Positions 7,901 through 61,277 of a stretch of DNA of 64,000 nucleotides are shown here, in pieces. Source of the stretch: Heptranchias perlo. Lineage: Eukaryota. The notes beneath the pieces are model-generated. The model had not been told where the DNA came from. It did no database searches and saw only the letters and a list, made by a program, of their open reading frames with translations. The number at the start of each line of letters is the position of its first letter. Positions within the stretch are counted from its first letter, which is position 1. A program made the position numbers and the translations under genes. The stretch is from contig NC_090344.1 of NCBI RefSeq assembly GCF_035084215.1, positions 43,152,001-43,216,000 on the forward strand. The letters run 5' to 3'.

Positions 7901-10562
7901 CCGGTCTCAGTCCTGTCCCAGTGTGAATACTGTACGTACCGGTCTCAGTCCTGACCCAGTGTGGGTACTGTATATACCGGTCACAGTCCTGTCCCAGTGT
8001 GCATACTGTATGTACCGGTCTCAGTCCTGACCCAGTGTGCATACTGTATGTACCAGTCTCAGTCCTGTCCCAGTGTGGGTGATGTATGTACCGGTCTCAG
8101 TCCTGTCCCAGTGTGCATACTGTATGTACCGGTCTCAGTCCTGTCCCAGTGTGAATACTGTACGTACCGGTCTCAGTCCTGACCCAGTGTGGGTACTGTA
8201 CGTACCAGTCTCAGTCCTGACCCAGTGTGGGTGATGTATGTACCGGTCTCAGTCCTGTCCCAGTGTGCATACTGTATGTACCGGTCTCAGTCCTGTCCCA
8301 GTGTGCATACTGTATGTACCGGTCTCAGTCCTGTCCCAGTGTGGGTGATGTATGTACCGGTCTCAGTCCTGACCCAGTGTGGGTACTGTATATACCGGTC
8401 TCAGTCCTGTCCCAGTGTGCATACTGTATGTACCGGTCTCAGTCCTGACCCAGTGTGCATACTGTATGTACCAGTCTCAGTCCTGTCCCAGTGTGGATGA
8501 TGTATGTACCAGTCTCAGTCCTGTCCCAGTGTGGGTGATGTATGCACCAGTCCTAGTCCTGTCCCAGTGTGAATACTGTATGTACCAGTCCCAGTCCTGA
8601 CCCAGTGTGAGTACTGTATGTACCGGTCTCAGTCCTGACCCAGTGTGGGTGATGTATGTACCAGTCCCAGTCCTGTCCCAGTGTGGGTGATGTATGTACC
8701 AGTCTCAGTCCTGACCCAGTGTGCATACTGTATGTACCGGTCTCAGTCCTGACCCAGTGTGGGTGATGTATGTACCGGTCTCAGTCCTGTCCCAGTGTGC
8801 ATACTGTATGTACCGGTCTCAGTCCTGACCCAGTGTGGGTGATGTATGTACCGGTCTCAGTCCTGTCCCAGTGTGCATACTGTATGTACCGGTCTCAGTC
8901 CTGTCCCAGTGTGGGTGATGTATGTACCGGTCTCAGTCCTGTCCCAGTGTGCATACTGTATGTACCGGTCTCAGTCCTGTCCCAGTGTGGGTGATGTACG
9001 TACCGGTCTCAGTCCTGACCCAGTGTGCATACTGTATGTACCAGTCCCAGTCCTGACCCAGTGTGGGTGATGTATGTACCGGTCTCAGTCCTGTCCCAGT
9101 GTGGGTGATGTATGTACCGGTCTCAGTCCTGTCCCAGTGTGGGTGATGTATGTACCGGTCTCAGTCCTGACCCAGTGTGGGTGATGTATGTACCGGTCTC
9201 AGTCCTGTCCCAGTGTGGGTGATGTATGCACCGGTCTCAGTCCTGACCCAGTGTGCATACTGTATGTACCAGTCCCAGTCCTGTCCCAGTGTGGGTGATG
9301 TATGTACCAGTCCCAGTCCTGTCCCAGTGTGGGTGATGTATGCACCGGTCTCAGTCCTGACCCAGTGTGCATACTGTATGTACCAGTCCCAGTCCTGTCC
9401 CAGTGTGGGTGATGTATGTACCAGTCCCAGTCCTGTCCCAGTGTGGGTGATGTATGTACCAGTCCCAGTCCTGACCCAGTGTGCATACTGTATATACCGG
9501 TCTCAGTCCTGACCCAGTGTGCATACTGTATGTACCAGTCCCAGTCCTGTCCCAATGTGGGTGATGTATGTACCAGTCCCAGTCCTGACCCAGTGTGGGT
9601 GATGTATGTACCAGTCCCAGTCCTGACCCAGTGTGGGTGATGTATGTACCAGTCCCAGTCCTGTCCCAGTGTGGGTGATGTATGCACCGGTCTCAGTCCT
9701 GACCCAGTGTGCATACTGTATGTACCAGTCCCAGTCCTGTCCCAATGTGGGTGATGTATGTACCAGTCCCAGTCCTGACCCAGTGTGGGTGATGTATGTA
9801 CCGGTCTCAGTCCTGACCCAGTGTGCATACTGTATGTACCAGTCCCAGTCCTGTCCCAGTGTGGGTGATGTATGCACCGGTCTCAGTCCTGACCCAGTGT
9901 GCATACTGTATGTACCAGTCCCAGTCCTGTCCCAGTGTGGGTGATGTATGTACCAGTCCCAGTCCTGTCCCAGTGTGGGTGATGTATGTACCAGTCCCAG
10001 TCCTGACCCAGTGTGGGTGGTGTATGTACCAGTCCCAGTCCTGTCCCAGTGTGGGTGATGTATGCACCGGTCTCAGTCCTGACCCAGTGTGCATACTGTA
10101 TGTACCAGTCCCAGTCCTGTCCCAGTGTGGGTGATGTATGTACCAGTCCCAGTCCTGTCCCAGTGTGGGTGATGTATGCACCGGTCTCAGTCCTGACCCA
10201 GTGTGCATACTGTATGTACCAGTCCCAGTGTGAATACTGTATGTACCGGTCTCAGTCCTGACCCAGTGTGAGTACTGTATGTACCAGTCTCAGTCCTGAC
10301 CCAGTGTGGGTGATGTATGTACCAGTCCCAGTCCTGTCCCAGTGTGGGTGATGTATGCACCGGTCTCAGTCCTGACCCAGTGTGGGTGATGTATGTACCA
10401 GTCCCAGTCCTGACCCAGTGTGGGTGATGTATGTACCGGTCTCAGTCCTGTCCCAGTGTGAATACTGTATGTACCGGTCTCAGTCCTGACCCAGTGTGGG
10501 TACTGTATGTACCAGTCTCAGTCCTGACCCAGTGTGAATACTGTATGTACCGGTCTCAGTCT
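4952..10562. repeat. Intronic tandem satellite, 38-bp unit, about 147 copies
   Basis: Unit CCCAGTGTG(CATAC/GGTGA)TGTA(C/T)GTACC(G/A)GTCTCAGTCCTG(A/T) repeats without spacers for 5.6 kb and explains all ORFs from 4957 to 10261. Confidence 0.98.
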
Positions 10563-17765: not shown

Positions 17766-19471
17766 GTGCTGGGGATAACTTCCAGTTCAAAGCTGAACCA
17801 GTTTGATAGGTGTCTCGATGTCTGAAATACATATTGGTGGCAACAAAATTAGCTCCATGACATCTACCCAACTGGGCACTTGGTGATTTTTTTTTTGCTA
17901 CCAACTGTTGTGTTGTCCTCCACATTTCTCTAAAGACAGCTACTTGCTACGTGTTTATCTCAATAATAGGAGCACTTCAGTAATGTGATCAGAGCTGGAA
18001 AGTAAACTCTTCTGGGGGAACAATGGAATGCAGAACTATTAGTGTTCTTAATTTAAAAGTCAGGACAAGTCATATCTTTTCTCTTCAAATCTGATTATAT
18101 TGACCATAACTTTACCTAAAAGAGAGCGAAATGAAGCTTTGTTTGTATGTTTCCTCCAGTAAACGAACAAGCTGTGTCGAGGTGTTGCTTACTCAACGCA
18201 TTCATTAAGAAGACGATAAAAGCTTAGAGGAGACAAAAGACGACAAACATTTACAGCTTCAAGGCTTCATGAGATATTATGTCAAATTTCTGTACGTGCT
18301 GGTACATTTGTCATCATCGTTTGAGTCTGGGGGCGACGCACAGCCTGCTCCCCAGCAAGCTGCCACCAGTCCACAACCATACTTGGCGTCAGAATTTCAA
18401 GGGAAATTGGGTACATTTTCAGACGATAGCAAACTAGGAGAGGCTAATGAATCTGAGAAGGCAGCTCAGGAACTCCAAAACGAGTTGGACAAAATATGTG
18501 AGTGGGCAGAACAATGACCAATGAAATGTGTATGGTCTGATGTAAAGTATCTGAAAACAGGTGACATAAGTGGTGTTGAAATCGGTAAGAATGAAGTTGA
18601 AAGTGTTTGAGGAGTCACTTATACGTCCAATCAATCTGGACCAGTGGTCAACAAAACCATTGGAATACTGAACTCTGCAGCCAAAAACAGTGACGCCCAT
18701 CGGAACCTGCCATGCATGTGTAAAGAAAGATCCCACTGGCTTTGGGCGGGTGCCCTTGCCATCTACTCAGTAGAGCAGATTACAATCGGGAACAGTCAGT
18801 TCCCGGTGGCTTTAGGACGGGTAAGTAACCTGGGTGATTTTAACTGCCCACTCGCCAGGTTTCCAGCAGGCGGGTAGAGTTACAATCAACCTCATTGTTC
18901 CAAATCCTTGCAATCACTGTTGAGATTGTGACATCTCATCAGCCTCTCCAGCTACTGCTATTGCAGCCTGACTCCACATAGCACTAAACTTCAAGCAGTC
19001 CCTCCCCCACTTCCTTCCCCCCCACTATTGGCGGTCATGCCTTCAGCCGTCAAAGATGGATATATTTTACACTCTTCATTTGATAAAGTTAACTGATTCT
19101 CTTGTGGATGCAATGACACACAGACTGACTGGGCAGCTTAAACTGGGCTCTTCAATACTTCAGTGCAGAGATGTCTCACTGTGCGCTACAGGATGCTGGA
19201 TAGAGAGTGGACAGTGAGGGCAAAAAGGGAGAAGAGGGCCAAGGAAGCAGCACAAGCAGACGAGAAGTGCCTTAAAGAGGTTTTTGAAGGCAGGGAGGAG
19301 GGAGGCAAGGCAGATCGCTGAGGGGCAAACTTGCTGAAGGACAGTAGATATTCACAAAAATACACCCCATTCATACATACATGTTCATCCTTGTTTCTGT
19401 GTCCAGTGCACCTCAATTTTATAATTCTCATCTGTTCAAATCCCTCCATGGCTTCGCCCCTCACCAACCTC

Positions 19472-20738
19472 GTGCGCCGCGACAGTCACCCGAGCCATCT
19501 TCCGCTTTGTCTGGAGATCAAAAATGGACCGTGTCCGCAGGGTCACGATGTACAAATCTCCAGAGAGAGGGGGGAAAGGCGTGCCCAACGTGGCCCTCAT
19601 CCTGATGGCCACCCTTGTGTGCGGCTGCATCAAGCTGTGCATAGACCCTCGGTACGCAAACACAAAGTGTCACTACGTGCTGAGGTTCTACCTATCCCCG
19701 GTGTTGAGGAGGATGGGCCTGGCCACGCTGCCACGGAACGCTCCGTCCAGTTGGACCGTTCCGCCCCACCTGTCCTTCGTGGAAAAGTTTGTGCAGAAAA
19801 ACACCTTTGACCACAAGGCGATCAGCAAGTGGTCCGCACGTAACGTCCTCGAGACCCTGCGGGAAAAGGAGATGGTGGATCCTGTCGGTTGGTTCCCCGA
19901 GCAGACTGTCAATGTCATTTGGCAGAACGCCTCATCGCCAGAGCTGTTAAACAAGCACCAAGACCTAGCTTGGCTGGTGGGGAGAAGGGCCCTTCCCGTC
20001 AGATCCTTCATGCACTCCCGGGCTCTCAGCGCCACTGCGCGCTGTCCCCGAGGAGGCTGCACTGGAGACGAGACCGTCAGCCACCTCCTTCTGGAATGTG
20101 CCTTTGCAAAGAAGGTCTGGAGAGAGATGCAGTGGTATCTGTCCAGGTTCGTCCCGAGCTGTTCTGTAACACAGGATTCTGTGCTCTACGGGCTGTTCCC
20201 GGGGACGCACACCGAGACGGACATCGGCTGCTGCTGGAAGACCATCAACTCGGTGAAAGACGCCCTTTGGTCTGCCCGAAACTTGCTGGTCTTCCAGCAC
20301 AAGGAGCTGTCCTCGACCGAGTGTTGCAGACTGGCACATTCCAAGGTCCAGAACTACGTGCTCAGGGACGCACTGAGGACGGGTGCGGCCGCCGCAAAGG
20401 ATCTGTGGGGAAAGGCAACCGTTTGGAGCCTTCCCGCCAATGTATACAGAGGGGCTGCAATCAGGGAAAAACCCCCTCGAGCAGAATGTAAAATTCTAAT
20501 TGAACCTGTAAAAAATCTGTAACATACCTGTTATCAATAATCTGTATTGAGTGTAATGCAATGAGGCACCCAAGAGTGTCATGAACTGCAATTATGTCCA
20601 ATGTGTTCATTGAACTGTACTTCATGTAACCTGCAAATTGTATGATCTGTATTGTGTACGTTTGGAATGTGATATGACAACTGTATTGTATGTATTGCTG
20701 CAAATTTTATGAAGAAAGTATATTTTTTGAAAAAAAAA
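19472..20738 (+). mobile_element. 5'-truncated Tx1-clade (L1 superfamily) LINE inserted in an L2-type remnant
   Basis: The 332-aa ORF is an ORF2 C-terminus with a zf-RVT knuckle (CPRGGC...ETVSHLLLEC...VW). An AT-rich 3'UTR, an A-tail at 20729-20738 and an apparent 6-bp TSD AACCTC (19466-19471 / 20737-20742) follow. Confidence 0.88.
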
Positions 20739-22214: not shown

Positions 22215-23115
22215 TGACACACTTTTCAAAATTTGCAGATGACACTTGGAAGTGTATAAACAGTGAGGAGGATAGTGATAGACTTGAAGAGGACGCAGAC
22301 AGGTTGGTGGAATGGGCGGACACGTGACAGATGAAATTTAACGCAGAGAAGTGTGAGGTGATACATTTTGGGAGGAAGAACGAGGAGAGACAATATAAAC
22401 TAAAGAGGATGCAGGAACGGGGACACCTGGGGGTATATGTACACAGGTCATTGAAGGTGGCAGGACAGGTTGAGAAAGCGGTTAAGAAAGCATATGGGAT
22501 CCTGGGCTTTATAAATAGAGGCATAGAGTACAAAAGCGAGGATGTTATGTTGAACCTTGATAAAACACTGGTTCGGTCACAATTGGAGTATTGTGTCCAA
22601 TTCTGGGCACCGCACTCTAGGAAGGATGTGAAGGCCTTAGAGAGGGTGCAGAAAAGATTTACTAGAATGAGGGACTTCAGTTACGTGGATAGACTGGAGA
22701 AGCTGGGGTTGTTCTCCTCAGAGCAGAGAAGGTTGAGAGGAGATTTGATAGAAGTGTTCAAAATCATGAGGGGTCTAGACAAAGTAAATAAAGAGAAACT
22801 GTTCCCATTGGCGGAAGGGTCGCAAACCAGAGGGCACAGGTTTAAGGTGACTGGCAAAAGAACCAAAGGCGACATGAGGAAAAACTTTTTTACGCAGCGA
22901 GTGGTTAGGATCTGGAATGCACTGCCTGAAAGGGTGGTGGAAGCAGGGTCAATTGTGGCTTTCAAAAAAGAATTAGATAGGTACCTGAAGAAGAAAAATT
23001 TGCAGAGCTTCGGGGAAAGAGCAGGGAAGTGGGACTAGCTGGATTGCTCTTAGAGAGCTGGCGCAGGTTTGATGGGCTGAATGGCCTCCTTCTGTGCCGT
23101 AACCATTCTATGATT
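22215..23115 (+). mobile_element. CR1 LINE, 3' part of ORF2 plus 3'UTR
   Basis: KFADDT remnant, MKFNAEKCEVIHFG...LEYCVQFWAP...RRLRGDLIEVFKI...WNALPE; ends attctatgatt. Confidence 0.95.
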
Positions 23116-24374
23116 TTGTTTTAATGTCCAGCTCACTGTATAAAATGTGGTCAATTCATGATTTAGTTCTTGACATTTGTTGAAAAACATATGGGAGCAC
23201 CAATTTAACAGGAAATAAAACCAGGAAGCTTATATTGTATCCACATAAATCTATACATTAATTGAATTTACACGAATGTAATGGTATCCACTACTGTATA
23301 ACTCTATATGTAAACCATCCAAATCTCTCCATTAATTTCCAAACAGCAACTCCCAGATATATTACTGATGGAATTTCACAGGGCTTTGCTGCCAGCATGG
23401 AGCTTCGCTGGACACAAGTAGGGAGACAGAGAGGAGTCTGCTAACACTGTAGCCCCAATTCTCAGACACACCCTCACACCAACCCCTCTCTCTATATGTA
23501 CACCATTCAAACCCCTTGACTACCTTTTAGTCTGTAACCCCTTGATTATAATGTAATCTCCTGACATTTTTGCCATCTGTTATCCCTGACCTCTGTGTAA
23601 GGAAACTGTATTTACAATATAGACACTAACAAGTAGTTTAGAAAAAATAATTGTCATAGATGCCTATAATCAATTTGCATGCATATCCTTTTCACAGTGA
23701 GAATATCTGTACAGAGCTCATAGTAAGATCGGAGAGACAGACAATCTGACTTAAAGGAATGGGGAAACATGACGGTTTCCCGTAACAGTGTGGTGGGAGG
23801 GGGAGGACACACAAGTTTGTGCTCGATATCCAACCTAGCACATTCCCAATCTCACCTGTCATCAAGGATCGAACATCACCTCAGTCACTTTCACACTCTT
23901 CAGACCAGGCTGTTCAAAAGGAGTGGAGGCAGGCAGCTTCATATGCGCCCTCGGAATTGGAAACAGTAAGTGCCCACAAGGAAGCCTAAAAAGGAGAAAA
24001 TAATTTGAAACTGGTGGACTATAAAATAAATAAGAACAGCCAGTTTCTGAAGAAGTCTGTTCCACACAGTGCGAGAATCAGCCAATAAACAAACCTTTAA
24101 CACACCTTCTCAGTCAGACAGCAGACTGAAGAAATGTAGCACAGATCCTGCAAATGGAAATTCTTCCTTCGATGAAAGTACCACCACAGAAAGGATTCAA
24201 ACTCTCTCAGAGCCACAGACATCAGCAACATTCACAACAACCCTAAATTAACACAATCAAAAAGCTGACACACATCTCGTTTCTATTCCAATGCTATCTA
24301 CGCTGATCACATAATCACCAGTATCAACGATAGCAAGATTATGAAATGTACAATTGACTCTACAATTTTTTTCA

Positions 24375-27010
24375 TTTAGTATGGTACAGCACAGAAGAAG
24401 GAGGCCTTTCGGCCCATCGTGCCTGTGCCAGCTCTTTGAAAGGGCTATCCAATTAGTCCCAATCCACCGCTCTTTCCCCATAGGCCTGTTTCCCCTTCAA
24501 GTATTTGTCCAATTACCTTTTGAAAGTTACTATTGAGTCTGCTTCCACCACCCTTTCAGGGAGTTCATTCCAGATCATAACAAGTCGCTCCATAAAAAAG
24601 TGATTCCTCATGTCACCTCTGGTTCTTTTGCCAATCACCTTAAATCTGTGTCCACTGGTTACCAACCCTCCGCCACTGGAAACAGTTTCTCCTTATTTAC
24701 TCTATCAAAACTGCTCTGAACACCTCTATCAAATTTCCTTCACCTTCTCTGCTCTAAGGAGAACAATCCCAGATTCTCCAGTCTCTTCACATAACTGAAG
24801 TCCTTCGAGTAAATCTCTTCTGCACCCTCTCTAAGGCCTTGACATCCTTCCCAAAGTGGGGTGTCCACAATTGAACACAATACTCCAGCTAAGGCCTAAC
24901 CAGTGTTTTATGAAGGTTTAGCATAACTTCCTTGCTTTTGTACACTCTGCATCTATTAATAAAGCCCAGGATCCCATATGCTTTTTTAACAGCCTTCTCA
25001 ACTTGTCCTGCCACCTTCAAAGATTTGTGTACACACACCCAGGTCTCTGTTCCTGCATCCCCTTCAAAATTGTACCATTTAGTTTATATTGCCTCCCCTC
25101 ATTTTTCCGACCAAAATGTATCACTTTACACTTCTCCATGTTAAATTTCATCTGGCACATGTCTGCCCATTTCACCAGTCTGTCAACGTCCTCCTGAAGT
25201 CTGCTACTGTCGTCCACATTGTTTACTACATTTCTGAGTTTCGTGCCATCTGCAAACTTTGAAATTATACCCTCTATACCCAAGTTCAAGTCATTAACAT
25301 ATATCAAAAAGAGCTATGGTCCTAATAGCGACCCCTGTGGGACACCACTGTATACTTCCCTCCAGTCTGAAATACAACCGTTCACCACTCCTCTCTGCTT
25401 TTTGTCCCTTAGCCAATTTCGTATCCACGCAGCCACTGTCCCTTTAATCCTCTAATAATTTTTCTACGTGGTACTTTATCAAATGCCTTTTCAAAGTCCA
25501 TATACACATCAACCACACTACCCTTATTAACCCTCTCCGTTACTTCATCAAAGAACTCAAACAAGTTAGTCAAACACGATTTTCCTTTAACAAATCCATG
25601 CTGACTTTCATTTATTAGCCCAGACTTTTCCAAGTGCCAATTAATTTTGTCTTGAATTATTATCTCTAAAAGTTTCCCCACCACCAACGTTAGCATGACT
25701 GGCCTGTAATTGCCAGGTTTATCCCTCTCCCCTTTTTTGAATAGGGGTGTAACATTTGCAATCCTCCAATCCTCTGGCACCGCCCCCATATGCAAGGAGA
25801 ATTGTAAGATTATGGCCAGAGCCTCCACAATTTCCACCCTTACTTCCCTCAGTAGCCTAGGATGCATCCCATCTGGACCGGGTGACTTTTCTACATTGAG
25901 TCGCACCAATCTTTTAAGTACCTCCTCTTTATCTATTTTTATCCTATCCAATATCGGTAGTACTTCCTCCATTACTGCTATGTTGGCAGCATCCTCTTCT
26001 TCAGTGAAGACCAATGCAAAGTATTCATTTAGTACCTCAGCCATGCCCTCTGCCTCCACAAGAAGATCTCCTTTTTTGTCCCCAATCGGCCCCATCCTTC
26101 CTTTCACTACTCTTTTACTATTTATATGTTTATAAAAGATTTTTTGGTTCCCTTTTATGTTAGTCACCAATCTATTCTCATACTCTCTCTTTGCCCCTCA
26201 TTTCTTTTTTTAGGTCTCCTCTTTACTTACTGTATTCAGCTTGGTTCTACTGTATTATGAGCCTTACATTCGTCATAAGCCTCCTTTTTCTGTTTCATTT
26301 TAATCTCTATATCTTTAGTCATCCAAGCAGCTTTAGCTTTAGATGCCCTTCCTTTCCCCCCTGGGAATGTGTCTACTCTGTACCCGAATCATCTCCTCCT
26401 TGAAGGCCTCCCATTGTTCAATTACTGTTTTGTCTACCATTTTTTGATTTCAATCCACCTGGGCAAGATCCTTTTTTAACTCACTGAAATTAGCCCTCCT
26501 CCAGTTAAGTATTTTTACGCTTGATTGTTCCTTGTCCTTTTCCATAACTATTTTAAACCTGATTATATCTTGATCACTGTTCCCCAAATGCTGCCCCAAT
26601 GAAACATGCTCCACTGGCCCCACTTCATTCCCCAGAACTAGTTTGAGCAGTGCTTCCTTCCTTGTTGAGCTGGAAACACACTGATCAAAAAAGTCCACTT
26701 GTTCACATTTCAGGAATTCCTCCCCCTCTTTCCCCTTGACACCATTACTGTCCCAGGCTATATTGGGATAATTGAAGTCCCCCATCATCAGTACTCTATG
26801 GCGTTTGCATCTTTCTGTAATTTCCCTGCAAGTTTGCTCCTCTATCTCCTTCCATTATTTAGTGGTCAATAGTAATGTAAAGCTCCTCTATTATTCCTTA
26901 ATTCGAACCAAATAGATTCGGTCTTTGACCCCTCAACTACATCATCCCTTTCCAGTGCTATCATAGTTTCTTTGATCAATACTGCCACCCCCCTCCTTTC
27001 TTTCCTTCCC
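24375..27010 (-). mobile_element. CR1 LINE, degraded ORF2 (endonuclease and RT) plus 3'UTR
   Basis: ORF pieces GDFNYPNIAW (APE endonuclease), KSPGPDGMHPR...NYRPV...QHGF...DFEKAFDKVP and SKFADGTKL (RT), with several stops, frameshifts and an internal deletion. Confidence 0.95.
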
Positions 27011-32929: not shown

Positions 32930-33050
32930 TGCTGATCCTGGGGGGCGGGGGGCGGGGCTCGCACGCGCGGAAGGCGGTGACGATGCGCGTTCGGGTTCCA
33001 CGACGTCACGACGCCTATAAGAAGCGGCGAGGCGGGGCTGAGCGTTAGAT
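32930..33050 (+). promoter_or_regulatory. SLC20A1: SLC20A1 core promoter in a CpG island
   Basis: GC boxes GGGGCGGGG (32942-32957), a CRE-like CGACGTCA (33001-33008) and TATAAGA at 33016-33022. The sequence is CpG-dense from about 32930 to 33660; TSS expected near 33045. Confidence 0.75.
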
Positions 33051-33329
33051 GGCGGACAGCTGGTGACCGGGACGGTGGATTAAAATTTTTTAAAATTATT
33101 ATCGTGATACAGAGCGCGAGAGCCAACGTCGCACCGAGCGAAAGCCGGAGAGCCCGGTACCCGTTCGCACCAAGGCGACATCCGTTGCTGTGAGGGGGGG
33201 GTTGTGTTGAGCGCTGTATAGTCACCGAGTGGTTTGGAGCACTAACCGGAGAGCGCGGCTGACCCTCGCCGCGCGGACGATCCGCTCGAACTTTGCCCTC
33301 GCACCCGATTAGAGTCGCATCGTTAATTG
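33045..33329 (+). other. SLC20A1: SLC20A1 non-coding exon 1 (start approximate)
   Basis: Lies downstream of the TATA box and ends at a strong donor aattg|gtaagt (33330). Exon 2 begins with an acceptor upstream of the ATG, so a 5' exon is required. Confidence 0.7.
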
Positions 33330-33663
33330 GTAAGTGCGGCCCTTGCGTTCCGCGGTATGAGGATTACTTCCCTTCGGCGTTTGGGGACCCCCCTTTTTTT
33401 TTTCCTCCTCGCTTTCGGGCCTTCTGCATGCGGTGGCGGCGGCGGCGGCATATTCCGGAACAATCCGGCGTGATGGCCTCATTCATTCAGGAGGCGCCTG
33501 CCTGGAAGACCCGATGCAGCAGGCGCGAGGGGGAGCTAGCGGAGCCGCACGGACAACTGCAGCTGTTGCCGCCTGACTGCCTCCCGAATGAGGCGCGAAG
33601 GGTGTAAGACCGCGCGCACGGCACGGGGGGGGGGCTGTCTATACTGAGCCTGCGCGGGGAACG

Positions 33664-34690
33664 TGGGGGGGGGGGGTCGGTGTCTATTGGGGGTGGACTT
33701 GGGGGGGGGGCGGATCGGTGTCTATTGGGGGTGGACTTGGGGGGGGGGCGGATCGGTGTCTATTGGGGGTGGACTTGGGGGGGGGGCGGATCGGTGTCTA
33801 TTGGGGGTGGACTGGGGGGGGCGGATCGGTGTCTATTGGGGGTGGACTTGGGGGGGGGCGGGGCGGATCGGTGTCTATTGGGGGTGGACTGGGGGGGGCG
33901 GGGCGGATCGGTGTCTATTGGGGGTGGACTGGGGGGGGCGGATCGGTGTCTATTGAGGGTGGACTTGGGGGGGGGCGGGGCGGATCGGTGTCTATTGGGG
34001 GTGGACTGGGGGGGGCGGGGCGGATCGGTGTCTATTGGGGGTGGACTGGGGGGGGCGGGGCGGATCGGTGTCTATTGGGGGTGGACTGGGGGGGGGCGGA
34101 TCGGTGTCTATTGGGGGTGGACTGGGGGGGGCGGGGCGGATCGGTGTCTATTGGGGGTGGACTGGGGGGGGCGGGGCGGATCGGTGTCTATTGGGGGTGG
34201 ACTGGGGGGGGGCGGATCGGTGTCTATTGGGGGTGGACTGGGGGGGGGCGGATCGGTGTCTATTGGGGGTGGACTTGGGGGGGGGGGGCGGGGCGGATCG
34301 GTGTCTATTGGGGGTGGACTTGGGGGGGGGGGCGGGGCGGATCGGTGTCTATTGGGGGTGGACTGGAGGGGGCGGGGCGGATCGGTGTCTATTGGGGGTG
34401 GACTGGGGGGGGCGGATCGGTGTCTATTGAGGGTGGACTTGGGGGGGGGGGGCGGGGCGGATCGGTGTCTATTGGGAGTGGACTTGGGGGGGGCGGGGCG
34501 GATCGGTGTCTATTGGGAGTGGACTTGGGGGGGGCGGGGCGGATCGGTGTCTATTGGGGGGGGCGGGGCGGATCGGTGTCTATTGGGGGTGAACTTGGGG
34601 GGGCGGGGCGTCTATTGGGGGTGGACTGGGGGGGGCGGGGCGGATCGGTGTCTATTGGGGGGGCGGGCGGGCGGATCGGTGTCTATTGAG
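33664..34690 (+). repeat. G-rich minisatellite (about 33-41 bp unit, about 28 copies) in SLC20A1 intron 1
   Basis: Unit GGGGCGGATCGGTGTCTATTGGGGGTGGACT(T)G7-12C with variable G runs; explains the Gly-rich ORFs 33663-34738. Confidence 0.97.
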
Positions 34691-36564
34691 CATCGGCCGC
34701 TTGTGCATTCTCCCCAGAGCCGGTCCTGGAGGGGATAGAAATCATTCATTTGCGATTTAGCGGGATGAGCCATCGCAGTGGGCGGGGAGCTGTGGGAATG
34801 AGCCTCCGCTCTCTCAGGGGGACGGTCCAGCCTTCCTGACTTTATTTCGGAAAGATGGGATCGGGGAACGTTCCTGTATCTTCGAAGCAAGCCTAGTTGA
34901 TGGTGGAAATGGGGGAGCGGTGTGTTGGTGATGCACCGATCCCAGCCCGGTGATTGCAGAGAGCTGCGAACTGATTGGGAATCGGCTGGCAGTTACCAGT
35001 GTCCCGACAAATAAGTGGGATGCGCCCTGGGGTCCCTGTGTGGGATTGGTTTTAAATGGACTGGCCGTTTTGATGCTGGCGGGTGCTGCTGTTTCCAGCA
35101 TCCGCAGTATTTTGCTTTTGATTTTATGCTGGCGGGAATGTATTTCCTGTTTACTGATTTCAAACGTTACAAAGAGGCGCGAAAAGGATGGCGCTTTAAA
35201 ATTGAAAAAGGGAATTGCTGAAAACAACCGTGTCTTAAGTACCGTTCAAATCGGATTAAGATTATAACGACCGGGATTTCCACTAGATGGGGAATTTTTA
35301 ATCAAAGCCCCTACCGACAATATTATTACGCATAACTTTGTTTCCAGCGTGTAAATTTTTGGCTAAATGAGAAAGCTGAAATCGCATGAAAATTTAATAC
35401 GCTGATTTCAATCGAATCAAGTTGCAATCAAAACTGTGCACGAAATTTGGTCACGATGTTTAAAAGCTCCTTTGGCTCAACATCCATTTCTTAAAATTGC
35501 GCCGCTGTTTTTCTACATTGAAAGCGTTATATAAATGCGACTTGCTGTTATTTCCCACGAGTTCATTTGTCCAAGTAGTAAATATTTTGAACCTTTACAT
35601 AGAACTATTATACTAACTTTTTAATGTGATCGTGTTATAAGCAGTTGGGCAAAGTATTAAATGCTTTTGAAGTGAAAAACATCTCAAGGCGTTTCCAAGG
35701 CGTGGTGAGAGAGGGACGCCAAACCAGAGATATGAGGGAGGGATGGCCAAAGGCTTGGGCAAAAGGATGGGTTTTAGGGGGTGGAGAAGTTTAAGGGGGG
35801 GAATTTTAGAGTGGCCCTAGATGCCTGAAGCCATGGTCCCCATTGGTGGGAGAAGAGATGGGGTGCACAACAGGCCAGGTCAAGAAAGGAGAGTTGTGGG
35901 AGTTGGAGGATGTAAACAGGGCAAAGACTGTAGATGGATCATTTTAATTTTGGGCGATTGGAAGCGAATGCAGGTCTTTGGAGGCCAGAGATTTGGGATA
36001 GATATGTTGCAGAATTTTGATGAGCTGTGCATTTTGGAGGGAGGAAGATGGGAGGCTGATTAGCTTCTCGTTCCACTAACACATTTCGCAGGACAGCAGA
36101 TTATCGAGTGGATTGCTGCAGTTGAGGGTGCTATGGGTTTTCTGCTAGTTCTTGCTGGAGTGTAGTTCTGTGGGTGTTGGCAGCCTGCTGGTATCTTGTC
36201 CTGGTAGCCATTCTTTGTGAGTTTAGACAATGTGTGTCAGCAGGCCATTGGATTGTGGGGGTTTTCGCAGCCAAGTCCAATGCTGTTTCCACCTGACATG
36301 TATTTCCAGCAGAAGTAGCAGTGATCAGGAACTCCAACTGTGTGCTCTCTCTCACTCTCTCATCAGTGGTGCTGTGGCTAATTGTCCCAGCGATATTTGT
36401 GACTAATGTCAGTTAATTCAGCCCAGAGCAAAGTATCGAGGAACAAATTTTGGAGTTCCTCACCTTTTATGGCTTGGTATTACATCGAATGCTGCATTTG
36501 CCCAGAGGTTGTTATGGGGAGCTCAATTGGAAGTGGTTTCTGTTAGAAACATGAAACTTTCACT

Positions 36565-36692
36565 ACTCACCTGATGGAGATAATCTCTGAAAGCTTGTGA
36601 TTTTCAAATAAAATTGTTGGACTATAACCTGGTGTTGTAAGATTCCTTACATTTGTCCACCCCAGTCCATCACCGGCATCTCCGCATCATTT
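36565..36692 (+). mobile_element. Penelope-like element terminal fragment with degenerate hammerhead motif
   Basis: tcac-CTGATG-gagataatctct-GAAA-gctt-gtga followed by aataaa and ...ggactataacctggtgttg, the arrangement typical of vertebrate Penelope termini. Confidence 0.55.
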
Positions 36693-37158
36693 TTAGATTC
36701 TAATAGTGATTACAACTCAAGACAGCTCAAGTTAGATGGCTTTTGTCTTCTGCTTTTTTTTTCTCCTTTATGTAAATATAATTGAAGTCTTCTAATTAAG
36801 ATTGTAGTGGGACTTTACACAACTACCTCTAGTAAACTGATTGTTGCCAAAGTGTATGGGCAATATCAATTTCTTTTTTAAAAATAAGAATTATTGATGC
36901 ACACAATTATCTGGTTTGAATTCTCTTAACTGATCGATCTGTGCTGCTGACGGTGAAATGTTGTGCTACACTTTTAACGAGTAGACTTTCATTTCCGTTT
37001 AATAATACAGAATCTGAAATTGAGCGCTTGAGGATGGAAAGAAAATAATGTGATTCAAGGAATTTATTGAGTTATTGCTTTTAGGTCTCTGGCAAGACTT
37101 GAGTAATTGTGCAATATTACTGCATGTTTATAATTTGTGCCCTTTGCTTTTCCACAGG

Positions 37159-37218
37159 ATGAAGAACAGCCCAAATCTGTTGCTGTGTCCACAATGGGTT
37201 TCTCTACTATCATTCTAA
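37159..37218 (+). promoter_or_regulatory. uORF1 in SLC20A1 5'UTR (19 aa MKNSPNLLLCPQWVSLLSF*)
   Basis: ATG lies one base after the exon 2 acceptor (ttttccacag|G ATG); TAA at 37216-37218; weak Kozak context after splicing. Confidence 0.6.
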
Positions 37219-37271
37219 TTGTTGACTGTTGTAAAAACTGTGCAAGACAGACTATTAAACACAGTGGATAG
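37194..37271 (+). promoter_or_regulatory. uORF2 in SLC20A1 5'UTR (25 aa MGFSTIILIVDCCKNCARQTIKHSG*)
   Basis: Strong Kozak ACAATGG; TAG at 37269-37271; no further ATG in the 164 nt before the main start. Confidence 0.7.
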
Positions 37272-37435
37272 CAATTACTGCTGCACAATACTTGAGTGCA
37301 GTACATATTAATCTTATTCTATTTAATCAGTCATTTATTACATATCAAGATATTTTGTTACCTCATTTTGTATATTTAAGTGAATAGTATTTTTTTAAAT
37401 TCCGTACCACTAAAGCATTACAAGCTCGAGTGACC

Positions 37436-37724
37436 ATGGCGCTAGATGAGTATGTATGGATGGTTGTAGTTGGTTTCATCATTGCATTTGTTCTGGCGTT
37501 CTCGGTGGGAGCCAATGATGTTGCCAATTCATTTGGGACGGCGGTTGGTTCAGGAGTGCTGACACTCAAGAAAGCCTGCATCTTAGCAACAATCTTTGAG
37601 ACGGTGGGCTCTGTGCTGCTGGGTGCCAAAGTCAGTGAGACCATCCGGAAAGGAATAATTGATGTGCAGATGTTCAACTCGAGTCAACAAGTGCTAATGG
37701 CTGGGTCGATCAGTGCCATGTTTG
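37436..37724 (+). CDS. SLC20A1: Sodium-dependent phosphate transporter 1 (PiT1), coding exon 1 (exon 2 starts at 37158)
   Basis: ACCATGG start; [40 protein letters not shown] carries the PHO4 GANDVAN signature; donor G|gtaagt. Full join 37436-37724, 38001-38141, 38863-38948, 40831-40927, 42004-42123, 43406-43693, 44772-45336, 46116-46301, 47192-47276, 47644-47799 = 2013 nt, 670 aa. Confidence 0.97.
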
Positions 37725-54231: not shown

Positions 54232-55810
54232 AAGAACATAAGAAATAGGAGCAGGATTAGGCCACACAGCCCCTCGAGCCTGCTTTGCCATTCAGTAAGA
54301 TCATGGCTGACCTTCGACCTCAACTCCACTTTCCTGCCTGATCCCCATATCCCTTGATTCCCCCAGAGTCCAAAAATCTATCTGTCTTAGCCTTGAACAT
54401 ATTCAACAACTGAGCATCCATAGCCCTCTGGGGTAGAGAATTCCAAAGATTCACAACCTCTGAGAGTAGAAATTCCTCCTCATCTGTCTTAAATGGTTGA
54501 CGCCTTACCCTGAGACTATGCCCTCTAGTTCTAGACTCTCGAACCAGGGGAAACAACCTCGAATCATAGAAAGGTTACAGCACGGAAGGAGGCCATTCGG
54601 CCCATCGAGACCGTGCCGGCTCTATGCAAGAGGAATCCAGCTAGTCCCACTTCCCCGCCCTATCCCCGTGGCCCTGCAAATTTTTTCCTTTCAAATACTT
54701 ATCCAGTTCCCTTTTGAAGGCCATGATTGAATCTGTACTCCCTCAGGCAGTGCATTCCAGATCCAACCACTCGCTGTGTAAAAAAGATTTTCCTCATGTC
54801 ACCTTTGGTTGTTTTGCCAATCACCTGAAATCTATGCCCTCCGGTTCTTGACCCTTCCGCCAATAGGAACAGTTTCTCTCTGTCTACTCTGTATAGACAC
54901 TTCATGATTTTGAATATCTCTATCAAATCTCCTCGCAAATGTCTCTGTTCCAAGGAGAACAACCCCAGTTTCTCCAGTCTATCCATGTAACTAAAGTCCC
55001 TCATCCCTCTCAGCATCTACCCTGTCAAGCCCCTCAGGATCTTATGTTTCAATGAGATCACCTCTCATTCTTCTAAACTCCAGAGAGTATAGGCCCATTC
55101 TACTTAATCTCTCCTAAGGAAAACTCATCCAAGGAATCAATCTAGTGAACCTTTGTTGCACCACCTCTAAGGCAAGTATATCCTTCCTTAGATAAGGAGA
55201 CCAAAACTACACAGTACTCCAGGTGAGGTCTCAACAAAGCCGTGTACAACTGTAGCAAGACTTCCTTACTCTTGTACTCCAACCCCCTTGCAATAAAGGC
55301 CAACATGCCATTTGCCTTCCGAATTGCTTGCTGCACCTGCATGCTAACTTTTTGTGTTTCTGTGTACGAGGGCACCCAAATCTCTGAACGCCAACATTTA
55401 ATAGTTTCTCACCATTTAAAAAATACACTTTTTCTATTCTTCGTACCAAAGTGAATAACCTCACATTTCCCCACATTATACTCCAGCTGCCACCTTCTTG
55501 CCCACTCACTTAACCTGTCTATATCGCTTTGCAGACTCTTTGTGCCCTCCTCACAGCTTACTTTTCCACCTAACTTTGTATCGTCAGCAAACTTGGATAC
55601 ATTACACTTGGTCCCTTCATCTGAGTCATCAACACAGATTGCAAATAGCTGAGGCCCAAGCACCAATCCTTGCGGCACCCCCCGAGTTAGAGCCCGCCAA
55701 CCTGAAAATGACCCGTTTATCCCTACTCTGTTTTCTGTCTGTTAACCAATCCCCTATCTGCACGAATATATTACCCCCAACCCCACAAACCCTTATCTTG
55801 TGTAATGAGC
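54232..55810 (-). mobile_element. CR1 fragment containing a nested second CR1 (54561-55007)
   Basis: The host CR1 (PQGLVLGP, KFADDTKL, RPHLEYC; 3' end tatttcttatgttcttatg) is split at gggaaacaacctc|...|tcagcatctacc by another CR1 3' end beginning gaatcatagaaagg. Confidence 0.9.
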
Positions 55811-56325
55811 CCATATCTTGTGTAAAACTCCAAGAACTACTGCAGAGGCTGAAAGAAGAGAAACTTTGTATTTTCAGGGTGAATGTGAACACAATATGGA
55901 AGATCATCCACTATTTTTTGATCCTATATACACTGGGAAACCTTGGTTGAGGAGCAAGGTTCAAATTGTAAGACAACAAAGGTTGAAAACAGTGGGAGAC
56001 ACCAAAAAACCTGAGGTGTCCCAAAGCATTTCACAGCCAATGAAGTGCAAACAGGAAACATAAGAGCAGCACAGATCCTTGAAGTATCAATAAGATACAT
56101 AAATGTTACAAAAGAGAGATTGGAAGTTAAAGAAAAATTGCCTATCAGTTATGTTTTGTTTATCTTCTATGCTGCCCAGGACTGCTAGAGATGTATTAAA
56201 ACAGCCTCTCTTTCCCACCCCCACCCAGATGAGAATGTAGTATCGAACTCTTGGATGAATTTGGGCTTGAGAGAATTAAGAATTGTTGAAGAGAAAGGTG
56301 TTTGATAAAATAAACCAAGGCTTTT

Positions 56326-59062
56326 CATAGAATCATAGAAGTTACAACATGGAAACAGGCCCTTCGGCCCAACATGTCCATGTCGCCCAGTTTATACCAC
56401 TAAGCTAGTCCCAATTTCCTGCACTTGGCCCATATCCCTCTATACCCATCTTACCCATGTAACTGTCCAAATGCTTTTTAAAAGACAAAATTGTACCCAC
56501 CTCTACTACTGCCTCTGGCAGCTCGTTCCAGACACTCACCACCCTTTGAGTGAAAAAATTGCCCCTCTGGACCCTTTTGTATATCTCCCCTCTCACCTTA
56601 AATCTATGCCCCCTCGTTATAGACTCCCCTACCTTTGGGAAAAGATTTTGACTATCTACCTTATCTATGCCCCTCATTATTTTATAGACTTCTATAAGAT
56701 CACCCCTTAACCTCCTACTCTCCAGGGAAAAAAGTCCCAGTCTGTCTAACCTCTCCCTATAAGTCAAACCATCAAGTCCCGGTAGCATCCTAGTAAATCT
56801 TTTCTGCACTCTTTCTAGTTTAATAATATCCTTTCTATAATAGGGTGACCAGAACTGTACACAGTACTCCAAGTGTGGCCTCACCAATGCCCTGTACAAC
56901 TTCAACAAGACATCCCAACTCCTGCATTCAATGTTCTGACCACTGAAACCAAGCATGCCGAATGCCTTCTTCACCACCCTATCCACCTGTGACTCCACTT
57001 TCAAGGAGCTATGAACCTGTACTCCTAGATCTCTTTGTTCTTTAACTCTCCCCAACGTCCTACCATTAACGGAGTAGGTCCTGGCCCGATTCGATCTACC
57101 AAAATGCATCACCTCACATTTATCTAAATTAAACTCCATCTGCCATTCATCGGTCCACTGGCCCAATTTATCAAGATCCCGTTGCAATCCTAGATAACCT
57201 TCTTCACTGTCCACAATGCCACCAATCTTGGTGTCATCTGCAAACTTACTAACCATGCCTCCTAAATTCTCATCCAAATCATTAATATAAATAACAAATA
57301 ACAGCGGACCCAGCACCGATCCCTGAGGCACACCGCTGGACACAGGCATCCAGTTTGAAAAACAACCCTCTACAACCACCCTCTGTCTTCTGTCGTCAAG
57401 CCAATTGGCTACCTCACCTTGGATCCCATGAGATTTAACCTTATGTAACAACCTACCATGCGGTACCTTGTCAAAGGCTTTGCTGAAGTCCATGTAGACC
57501 ACGTCTACTGCACAGCCCTCATCTATCTTCTTGGTTACCCCTTCAAAAAACTCAAATTCGTGAGACATGATTTTCCTCTCACAAAACCATGCTGACTGTT
57601 CCTAATTAGTCCCTGCCTCTCCAAATGCCTGTAAATCCTGTCCCTCAGAATACCCTCTAACAACTTACCCACTACAGATGTCAGGCTCACCGGTCTGTAG
57701 TTCCCAGGCTTTTCCCTGCCGCCCTTCTTAAACAAAGGCACAACATTTGCTACCCTCCAATCTTCAGGCACCTCACCTGTTGCGGTGGATGATTCAAATA
57801 TCTCTGCGAGGGGACCCGCAATTTCCTCCCTAACCTCCCATAACGTCCTGGGATACATTTCATCAGGTCCCGGAGATTTATCTACCTTGATGCGCGTTAA
57901 GACTTCCAGCACCTCCCTCTCTGTAATATGTACACTCCTCAAGACATCACTATTTATTTCCCCAAGTTCCCTAACATCCATGCCTTTCTCAACCGTAAAT
58001 ACCGATGTGAAATATTCATTCAGGATCTCACCCATCTCTTGTGGTTCCGCACATAGATGACCTTGTTGATCCTTAAGAGGCCCTACTCTCTCCCTAGTTA
58101 CTCTTTTGCCCTTTATGTATTTGTAGAAGCTCTTTGGATTCTCCTTTGCCTTATCTGCCAAAGCAATCTCATGTCCCCTTTTTGCCCTCCTGATTTCTCT
58201 CTTAACTCTACTCCGACAATCTCTATACTCTTCAAGGGATCCACTTGATCCCAGCTGCCTATGCATGTCATATGCCTCCTTCTTCTTTTTGACTAGGGCC
58301 TCAATCTCCCGAGTCATCCAAGGTTCCCTACTTCTACCAGCCTTGCCCTTCACTTTATAAGGAATATGCTTACCCTGAACCCTGGTTAACACACTTTTGA
58401 AAGCCTCCCACTTACCAGACGTCCCTTTGCCTGCCAACAGACTCTCCCAATCAACTTCTGAAAGTTCCTGTCTAATACCATCAAAATTGGCCTTTCCCCA
58501 ATTTAGAATTTTAACTTTTGGGCCAGACCTATCCTTCTCCATAGCTATCTTAAAACTAATGGAATTATGATCACTGGTCCCAAAGTGATCCCTCACTAAC
58601 ACTTCTGTCACCTGCCCTTCCTTATTTCCCAAGAGGAGGTCAAGTTTTGCCCCCTCTCTAGTCGGGCCATCCACATACTGAATGAGAAATTCCTCCTGAA
58701 TACACTCAACAAATTTCTCTCCATCCAAGCCCCTAATGCTATGGCTGTCCCAGTCAATGTTGGGAAAGTTAAAGTCCCCTACTATTACCACCCTATTTTT
58801 CTTGCAGCTGTCTGTAATCTCCTTACATATTTGCTCCTCAATTTCCCGTTGACTATTTGGGGGTCTGTAGTACAATCCTATCAAAGTGATCTCTCCCTTC
58901 TTATTTTTCAGTTCTACCCATATAGACTCAGTGGGCGAACCCTCGGATATATCCCCTCTCACTACTGCCGTGATGTTCTCCCTAATCAAGAACGCAACTC
59001 CCCCTCCTCTCTTACCTCCTGCTCTATCTTTCCTATAGCATCTGTAGCCCTCGGCATTGAAC
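56326..59062 (-). mobile_element. Young 5'-truncated CR1 LINE with nearly intact ORF2
   Basis: The 509-aa and 387-aa ORFs cover the APE endonuclease (YYRPP, GDFNFP, SDH) and RT (DFSKAFD, GVPQGSVLGP, FADD), with one frameshift near 57555. The 3' end has (ttctatga) repeats. Confidence 0.97.
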
Positions 59063-59729
59063 ATTTAATGCAATGAGAAGCAAAGCTGATTCCAACAGGA
59101 TTAATAAATGAAAAAGGATCAAGGGTAAAGGCAATGGTTAGGTTTGCAAGACACAAAGAAACTGAAAGGCACTGAGATTTTCACTGCCCCCAAAGGGGAA
59201 TGAAAGAGGCAAAAGACAGCGATCAACTGAGAAGAATGTATGTTGCACAATCTGAAGGAAGTTGATGTCGAGTGAAGTCATCAGATGGGGAGAAAAGTAG
59301 AAATTTAGGCAGAATATTTCAGACCATACCACAGAGAGCTGATGACTTTTGCCACCAATTTTGGAGCAGAGGGAAGTGGGGGAACATAGAGAGATTAAGA
59401 GGCAGGGACAGGACTGCAGAAATTTTGCCAGGAGGCAAATAAAATCGGCAAAACTCTTATCAATCTTAAGTTGGAGAAAGTTCTGACATTCAATTTCATA
59501 TCAGAAATGTAGCCTGACAGTACAGTGACAGACATGGGAGTCAAGGGTGGTGGCAAAAAGAAGCTTATTGCAATCGATAAAGATTTGTCTCGTATGTTTA
59601 CTGTTGCACTCAGGACAAGTCTCCAGCTGATCCGGGTAGGTCTGCGGAATGAACAATGTTACTCAGATTGTTTGTGCCATTCTTAACGGGCTGGGTGTAG
59701 AAAATTGCCACATGAGAAATCCAAAGACA

Positions 59730-60087
59730 TACCCCGGGCCGCAAATGGTGGGAAAGCGACTAAAATGGCGGCCGGGCCAGCCCGAGTTATCCAACTCTGA
59801 TGGACTACAAGCCACTAGTAACCACACGGCGGGTTTTTATTCCAATTACGACGGCGTCGACAGATTAACAACCTCGGCCACAAAACCCCAACAATTCATC
59901 AATAGACAACTTATGAATGTGGCTCTGGGCGTGCGTTGTCCGTTTCTCAGACAAGAGGGGCAAGGTACGGCTCAGATGCCCATAACCATGGAAACCGCTC
60001 AGCTCTAACCCGGAAGCAGACGTTTTTTGGAAGAGGTCGTGTGTTTGGGACGTCGTGCGAGCGTGAGGAAAGCAGACAGCGGCAATC
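59730..60087 (+). promoter_or_regulatory. SNRNP200: SNRNP200 CpG-rich TATA-less promoter / 5'UTR
   Basis: YY1 AAAATGGCGGCC (59762-59773), ACTACAA (59804, ZNF143-associated motif) and ETS CCGGAAG (60010-60016); elevated CpG. Confidence 0.65.
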
Positions 60088-60132
60088 ATGGCGGATGTAA
60101 CTGCTCGCAGCCTGCAGTACGAGTACAAAGCG
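60088..60132 (+). CDS. SNRNP200: U5 snRNP 200 kDa helicase (Brr2), exon 1
   Basis: ATGGCGGAT... = MADVTARSLQYEYKA, the SNRNP200 N-terminus; donor GCG|gtgagt. Confidence 0.97.
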
Positions 60133-61073
60133 GTGAGTGAGGCTGGCGGTGTGAGGAAGGCTTGCGCTCGGCATTCACCGGGGGATTTGGCATCGGTTCG
60201 GCCTGCTTGAAATAAAGTGGGCGGCTCGGGTGCGATCCGGTCTGGCGCGGATAAACTGAGAGCAGGGCTTCGGCCTGTCCTGCTCTGCTGTGGTGATGAG
60301 GACAGGTATTCAGTCGGTGGTGGACTGTGCTGGGAAATTGGTGGGGATGCGAGGGGATCAGGGCAGCAGAAAGCGAACATCTGAATAAAGCGATAGCTTC
60401 AAATGGCGAAGCCCGGGATCCTGTGTACGAACTTCCACATGTGAACTAGGAAGGAGCCGGATCCGTTTTATAATCTGGGAAAACGGTTCAAAATGATATT
60501 CTCACATTGTTTCTCTTTGGGGCAGTCTATAGATATACTGTGCATTGTGGTGGATTGATAGTTTTTATTAGAATATAGTCTAATAAAGAGTATAGTCCTC
60601 AGGGGTCCATTTAAACATAAATATAGATACAACGAATTATGATTAATACCTATGTGCTTTGGATCTATATTTTTGTTTAAATTTTATAAGAGAATCCAGG
60701 GCAACAAAAGGCTCTTCAGACCATCAAGATCACTCGATCCAGAGTCCGTGTGTGATTATTCTATTTTGCACATCCCTCCCAAAGGCCCTTTGCTTTAAGT
60801 CCACAATGTTTATTCCCGATCTCCTCCAAAAAAAACAGTAGTATTAAATACATCTCTAACCTTCAATTCTGTTTCTCAACTAATATAAATGCAACTCCTT
60901 TTTGAAAGTGCCAATTGACCCTGAACCACCTTCCTTCTCTGGCAGTTTGTCCCACACGTCCAGTATCCTGTGGGTGGGGGATGAATTTGTGATTGTGAAT
61001 TTTTTTACAGCTTTATATATAAGTGCAGTTGCTGATATTGGGTACTGTATTGATTTACTGTACATCAGGATAA

Positions 61074-61277
<204 letters not shown>

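Follow-up and report, generated by a model that had tools for sequence, protein, structure and literature searches.

The SLC20A1 leader and its presence in spliced RNA

The window, that is, the whole 64-kb stretch of DNA analyzed, contained a PHO4-family phosphate transporter gene. Two PHO4 genes were found by the genome search: the window gene and one on C4 (locus L002). In the last exon, 22 of 26 residues of the window gene were identical, by eye, to a published human SLC20A1 fragment, compared with 18 of 26 for the C4 gene (PMC4568590), indicating that the window gene is closer to SLC20A1 than to SLC20A2. On this sequence likeness the window gene was taken as SLC20A1 (PiT1) and the C4 gene as SLC20A2. 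Matches to the searched part of the PMC4568590 supplement (six of seven hits; nine of 16 files) were coding sequence fragments only.

The features of the SLC20A1 leader and its surroundings are collected in Table 1. The ORF reading agreed with the initial annotation on the positions and lengths of both uORFs and on the stretch without an ATG ahead of the main start. In spliced mRNA uATG1 lies in a weak context (T at -3, A at +4), and the main ATG has A at -3 and G at +4. By itself the ATG-free spacer was a modest feature, arising in 3-7% of shuffles; a length of exactly 25 aa was found in 0.9% of ATG-started ORFs in the window.

Table 1. Features of the SLC20A1 5' region, in window positions
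Feature	Position	Strand	Remark
TATA-like word (33016) and exon 1 to the G/GTAAGT donor	33016..33329	+	Loose ends of spliced contigs match the 3' end of exon 1; exon 1 start approximate
Exon 2 first base (splice acceptor)	37158..37158	+	Joined to exon 1 in 4/4 runs
uORF1, 19 aa, weak context	37159..37218	+	25-nt overlap with uORF2, other frame
uORF2, 25 aa, strong start context (A at -3, G at +4)	37194..37271	+
Near-invariant nucleotide block around the uORF2 stop, including TAG-CAA-TTA	37244..37292	+	10-nt word in common with L005
ATG-free spacer, 164 nt, tolerant of indels of any size	37272..37435	+
Small stem CTGCAC/GTGCAG	37281..37301	+	Unsupported as a conserved structure
First coding part of SLC20A1/PiT1 (PHO4 family)	37436..37724	+	Main ATG at 37436

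Spliced contigs from four of four runs joined 33329 to 37158 and also had the next intron removed (joint 37723>38000). In four of four further runs, exon-1-like letters preceded exon 2. None of these runs is on record as RNA and their RNA status was guessed; splicing is shown by the joints. Because contigs carried both the exon 1-exon 2 and the exon 2-exon 3 joints, uORF1 and uORF2 are both present in spliced RNA, and in all four runs they lay in the mature mRNA 5' of the main ATG. The acceptor seen at 37158 in each run is the one expected from the proposal that exon 2 opens at G/ATG. An acceptor downstream of 37196, named beforehand as evidence against a functional uORF pair, was absent from the spliced contigs of the four runs, an assembly form that loses rare isoforms.

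Exon 1 has an ATG of its own, opening a five-codon frame (33049-33066) about 30 nt past the TATA-like word, where it may sit at the cap and may be part of the mRNA. In human SLC20A1, exon 1 contains a 14-aa uORF rated mammalian in the catalogue rows of PMC10032668.

Several other features were seen around the gene. Intron 1 contains a G-rich tandem array some 1 kb long (~33690-34680), with a strongly G-skewed sense strand. A long tandem array and several ORFs resembling retrotransposon fragments were noted by eye at ~5000-10300, 19425-20522, 22328-26854, and 55409-59064. Exons of SNRNP200 (Brr2) lie downstream on the same strand (61113-61276 and beyond), with a CpG-rich stretch nearby (60001-60500); human SNRNP200 is presumably on the same chromosome arm as SLC20A1. 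In the SLC20A2 gene the same PHO4 segment was matched twice at nearby positions (G000:C4:97813868-97813960 and 97812852-97812944), possibly a duplicated exon.

Layout in relatives, distant vertebrates and the paralogue

Eight of 24 listed runs, spanning all seven coded organisms, were compared. In all six other organisms (seven runs) uORF2 had zero indels and zero listed changes at its start or stop, so that start, stop and frame were kept across species, with uATG2 of organism F lying in a zone of unlisted differences. These relatives are close, C and D being identical at every listed place, and differences near contig ends are unlisted; the zones concerned cover uATG2 in F and uATG1 in C, D, and E. 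Elsewhere, uATG1 was fully listed in B, and it was read directly in F and G. Indels within uORF1 were 3-nt deletions only (B and F near 37181; G near 37162), and of the five spacer indels listed in one set of the relatives, four were 1 nt long. In organism B, 6 of 278 leader bases differed, vs 15 of 109 bases compared within an intron (p 3e-5; a single contig of depth 2.8). A common phase between uORF2 and the main ATG at three loci was considered and dismissed because spacer indels in the relatives shift this phase.

Among 80 metagenome loci four leaders were read, and L005 was the sole informative one. This contig comes from a non-shark vertebrate and carries an SLC20A1-like exon 2, window-like at ten diagnostic residues and L002-like at six. 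Its uATG1 stands at +2 and its uATG2 follows 35 nt on, the same offset as in the window, opening a 23-aa frame that is followed by a 257-nt ATG-free spacer. The two L005 uORFs overlap by 13 nt (25 nt in the window) in the same relative frame. L005 and the window have an 8-nt word in common at the uORF2 start and a 10-nt word in common at its stop. The full L005 layout, with tolerances picked after data inspection, arose in 0 of 20000 shuffles, and only 4 of 1000 shuffles aligned as well as L005 and the window did over the first 140 nt.

The human SLC20A1 leader contains two Ribo-seq ORFs, c2riboseqorf74 (25 aa) and c2norep137 (17 aa), which overlap by 25 nt (PMC10032668, catalogue rows). The human pair therefore resembles the window pair in uORF2 length, in the 25-nt overlap, and in relative frame, while the offset between the two uATGs is 29 nt in human vs 35 nt in the window, and the human pair is catalogued as young and de novo. 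The initial annotation had given a 25-aa human peptide, and this is letter-for-letter identical to c2riboseqorf74 in those rows. Its broader expectation of a two-uORF layout conserved over a deep distance agrees with the relatives, with L005, and with the published human coordinates, and translation in mammals is supported by published Ribo-seq data.

That layout also has a counterpart in the paralogue, which the initial annotation had missed. The L002 (SLC20A2) leader contains a 24-aa uORF with a strong start (L002:2030-1956, minus strand), beginning at +40 from the acceptor, which is a prediction, vs +37 in the window; the spacers are 170 and 164 nt. This geometry arose in 368 of 20000 shuffles and, with a strong start, in 16 of 20000. 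When the window and L002 uORF peptides were compared, only 171 of 20000 shuffles aligned as well, and the local score beat 340 of 340 background ORFs. Alignment of the two leaders as DNA was not significant (440 of 500 and 141 of 1000 shuffles scored as well), so the case for homology of the SLC20A1 and SLC20A2 uORFs is built on their geometry, the context of their stops, and a peptide match that is weak.

The human SLC20A2 uORF, c8riboseqorf45, is 24 aa long in the rows of PMC10032668. It has the same length as the L002 uORF, with 7 of 24 residues identical, and it is constrained in humans: in the available part of PMC11909976 its mean phyloP is 4.18 vs 2.71 for the gene, and five SNVs were seen where 19 were expected. 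It is set apart by its catalogue label of young, and L002 is without a uATG1. Since human and the window species each have both genes, the duplication predates the species split and, by inference, so does the uORF; the uORF element is likely older than the SLC20A1/SLC20A2 duplication.

Further observations were made in these leaders. At L002 (2025-1981, minus strand) a second ATG lies 5 nt inside the SLC20A2 uORF, out of frame, and opens a 14-aa frame; an ATG at the exon start is absent. The leaders of the two paralogues have an 8-nt word (window 37235-37242) at the same position, +78 relative to the acceptor. In L007, a more remote PiT homologue, the leader contains a 35-aa uORF with a strong start (190-297).

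Features that persist in uORF2

The initial annotation had proposed a conserved hydrophobic micropeptide, and the evidence does not support this. Among the relatives 18 of 21 distinct changes in uORF2 were non-synonymous, with a pN/pS of 1.6 vs 0.18 for the CDS (21 changes only), and one relative carries I7P, I9T, V10A, and D11G. The L005 peptide matched no better than shuffles did (7969 and 8439 of 10000). The human catalogue rows give PhyloCSF values of -344, for SLC20A1 uORF2, and -201, with 0 MS studies (PMC10032668). Purifying selection on the amino acids of uORF2 was thus not found, by pN/pS or by PhyloCSF. Third codon positions of uORF2 (37197-37268) varied least among relatives (3 of 21 changes, p 0.046), a pattern opposite to the one that coding selection leaves. 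In the overlap of uORF1 and uORF2, six of ten changes were synonymous in the uORF1 frame; this was not attributed to peptide selection, because the same codon positions are favored beyond the overlap.

Other observations hint at some peptide constraint. Ungapped identity to the human peptides was 6 of 25 for SLC20A1 uORF2 (by eye; binomial p 0.01-0.09) and 7 of 24 for SLC20A2 (p 0.002-0.02); with L005 there was none. Codons 18-25 of uORF2 had zero listed amino-acid changes among relatives. Missense variants in gnomAD exomes were depleted in the two human ORFs (6/20 and 12/29), with the exome signal not repeated for SLC20A1 uORF2 in the genome set (9/11), where SNVs of that uORF showed no overall depletion (27 seen, 20 expected), according to the accessible part of PMC11909976.

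The nucleotides around the uORF2 stop were more uniform. Two listed variable places occurred in the 49 nt of the stop block vs 18 in the preceding 47 nt, and changes in uORF2 were concentrated 5', sparing this block (65 of 20000 permutations were as extreme). The TAG-CAR-T context terminates three of three uORFs (window, L002, and L005) vs 9 of 1647 ORF stops in the window, in a test that was post hoc. A programmed readthrough product was also considered; the leaky context is present, but the extensions of 7, 30, and 27 codons are not conserved.

The letters of the small stem downstream are present as first described, and its reading as a conserved structure did not hold. The segment had a folding z of 0.35, 117 of 200 shuffles folding as well. 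The change 37300 A>C breaks a stem pair in C, D, and G, and the changes in the 3' arm are uncompensated, so that neither a stable fold nor compensatory changes were seen. An Rfam search gave no match in 37100-37500. The features that persist are the strength of the start, the TAG-CAR-T context of the stop, and the ATG-free spacer, and mostly not the peptide.

Interpretation and known systems

The SLC20A1 uORF2 is real and ancient, and likely has a regulatory role. Probably, it acts as an ancient cis brake on PiT synthesis, one that owes its action to the strong start, the context of the stop, and reinitiation and not to the peptide. A TAG-CAR stop is a slow, leaky terminator. In the proposed mechanism most scanning ribosomes would initiate at the strong uATG2, and translation of uORF2 would end at this slow, leaky-type stop. 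Some small subunits would stay bound, cross the ATG-free spacer, and reinitiate at the main ATG with the help of DENR; termination at the conserved stop would set the share of ribosomes that rescan. In SLC20A1 only, ribosomes starting at the weak uATG1 would terminate past uATG2 and so bypass the brake, a route that SLC20A2 (L002) would be without.

Published mammalian data bear on this mechanism. One AUG uORF in human SLC20A1 ranks high among Ribo-seq examples, which uORF being unstated in the accessible text of PMC8262740. In mouse, Denr knockdown lowers translation of the Slc20a1 coding sequence and shifts ribosomes to the leader, as reported in the available part of PMC6547434. The drop is a small one (log2 -0.37, adjusted p 0.0045), not assigned to uORF2 in particular (PMC6547434); another uORF lies in human exon 1 (PMC10032668). 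The idea put forward in the initial annotation of a functional uORF acting on PiT1 is partly supported, by conserved layout and mammalian translation, without its micropeptide and stem.

The brake reading could be extended by analogy with plants, where uORFs are gated by nutrients, as by boron at NIP5;1: phosphate, or a linked metabolite, would alter termination or reinitiation at the uORF2 stop and make it a phosphate-responsive switch. Both importers keep the uORF and its TAG-CAR-T stop, in keeping with such a switch, but the reported ESCRT-dependent post-transcriptional control of PiT1 abundance offers an alternative route (PMC9123275, in the part available), and we regard the switch as unlikely. 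The fuller version, in which both PiT importers inherited a pre-duplication uORF whose conserved, leaky-type stop lets phosphate influence termination or reinitiation, is doubtful to the same degree. Somewhat less likely again is that the 24-25 aa peptide, nascent or free, is the functional unit, as a stalling peptide or micropeptide. The ungapped human identities, the paralogue peptide match, and the unchanged codons 18-25 in relatives would fit such a function, as would the placing of both human ORFs among 104 missense-constrained sORFs (PMC11909976, available part). Human differs, however, at six of the eight final residues, and the non-synonymous changes in relatives, the L005 peptide, the negative PhyloCSF, the 0 MS studies, and the missense signal missing from the SLC20A1 genome set all speak against it.

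Conservation at the nucleotide level continues beyond the stop and third codon positions are the least variable, as would be expected if the beginning of exon 2 held a conserved element acting at the level of RNA or splicing, with the uORFs as mere passengers. Yet the words shared with L005 coincide precisely with the start and the stop of uORF2, indels either stay out of the frames or leave them intact, and neither an Rfam match nor a stable fold was found, which makes this account quite improbable. The catalogue reading, under which the uORFs are young chance products that arose independently in each lineage, draws on the label "primatomorpha - young, de_novo_ORF" given to all three human ORFs (PMC10032668; table rows) and on the paralogue leaders being unalignable. 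It is largely refuted by the matching 25- and 24-aa lengths, the shared 25-nt overlap, the rarity of exactly 25-aa frames in the window, and the absence of the L005 layout from shuffles, and has only a very slight probability.

If the brake reading is right, two catalogue entries labeled young and de novo become a paired control element, likely ancient, that is common to the two phosphate importers, and uORFs can be given a wrong age when they are dated by peptide. SLC20A2 has a link to brain calcification (PMC11909976, in the part available), and SLC20A2 uORF variants, or relief of the uORF, could alter transporter dose. Should phosphate tune the uORF, the way in which animal cells adjust uptake to supply would become directly accessible; a phosphate-sensitive stop would amount to an animal phosphate sensor located where ribosomes terminate, and to a means of changing SLC20A2 dosage in brain calcification. 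No literature on the age, paralogue pairing, or phosphate control of the SLC20A1/SLC20A2 uORFs was found in a search that took in few subscription journals and part of the supplements.

The nearest known systems each match in part. Conserved-peptide uORFs and the nutrient-gated uORFs of plants (NIP5;1, PHO1) also include uORFs placed before a nutrient transporter, whereas uORF2 differs from the conserved-peptide class in failing the test of peptide conservation. The leaky UAG-CARYYA stop of the tobacco mosaic virus type is matched by TAG CAA TTA in the window, and L002 and L005 keep TAG-CAR-T; unlike the viral case, the full motif is found in the window only and there is no conserved extended product. 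At 25 codons uORF2 is long for efficient reinitiation, which separates it from the uORFs that use DENR-dependent reinitiation. It resembles them in being non-overlapping with the CDS and in having a spacer before it, and mouse Slc20a1 is a listed target (PMC6547434, available part). The human uORFs are already catalogued; the ancient paired element is likely a well-supported new case of a conserved regulatory uORF.
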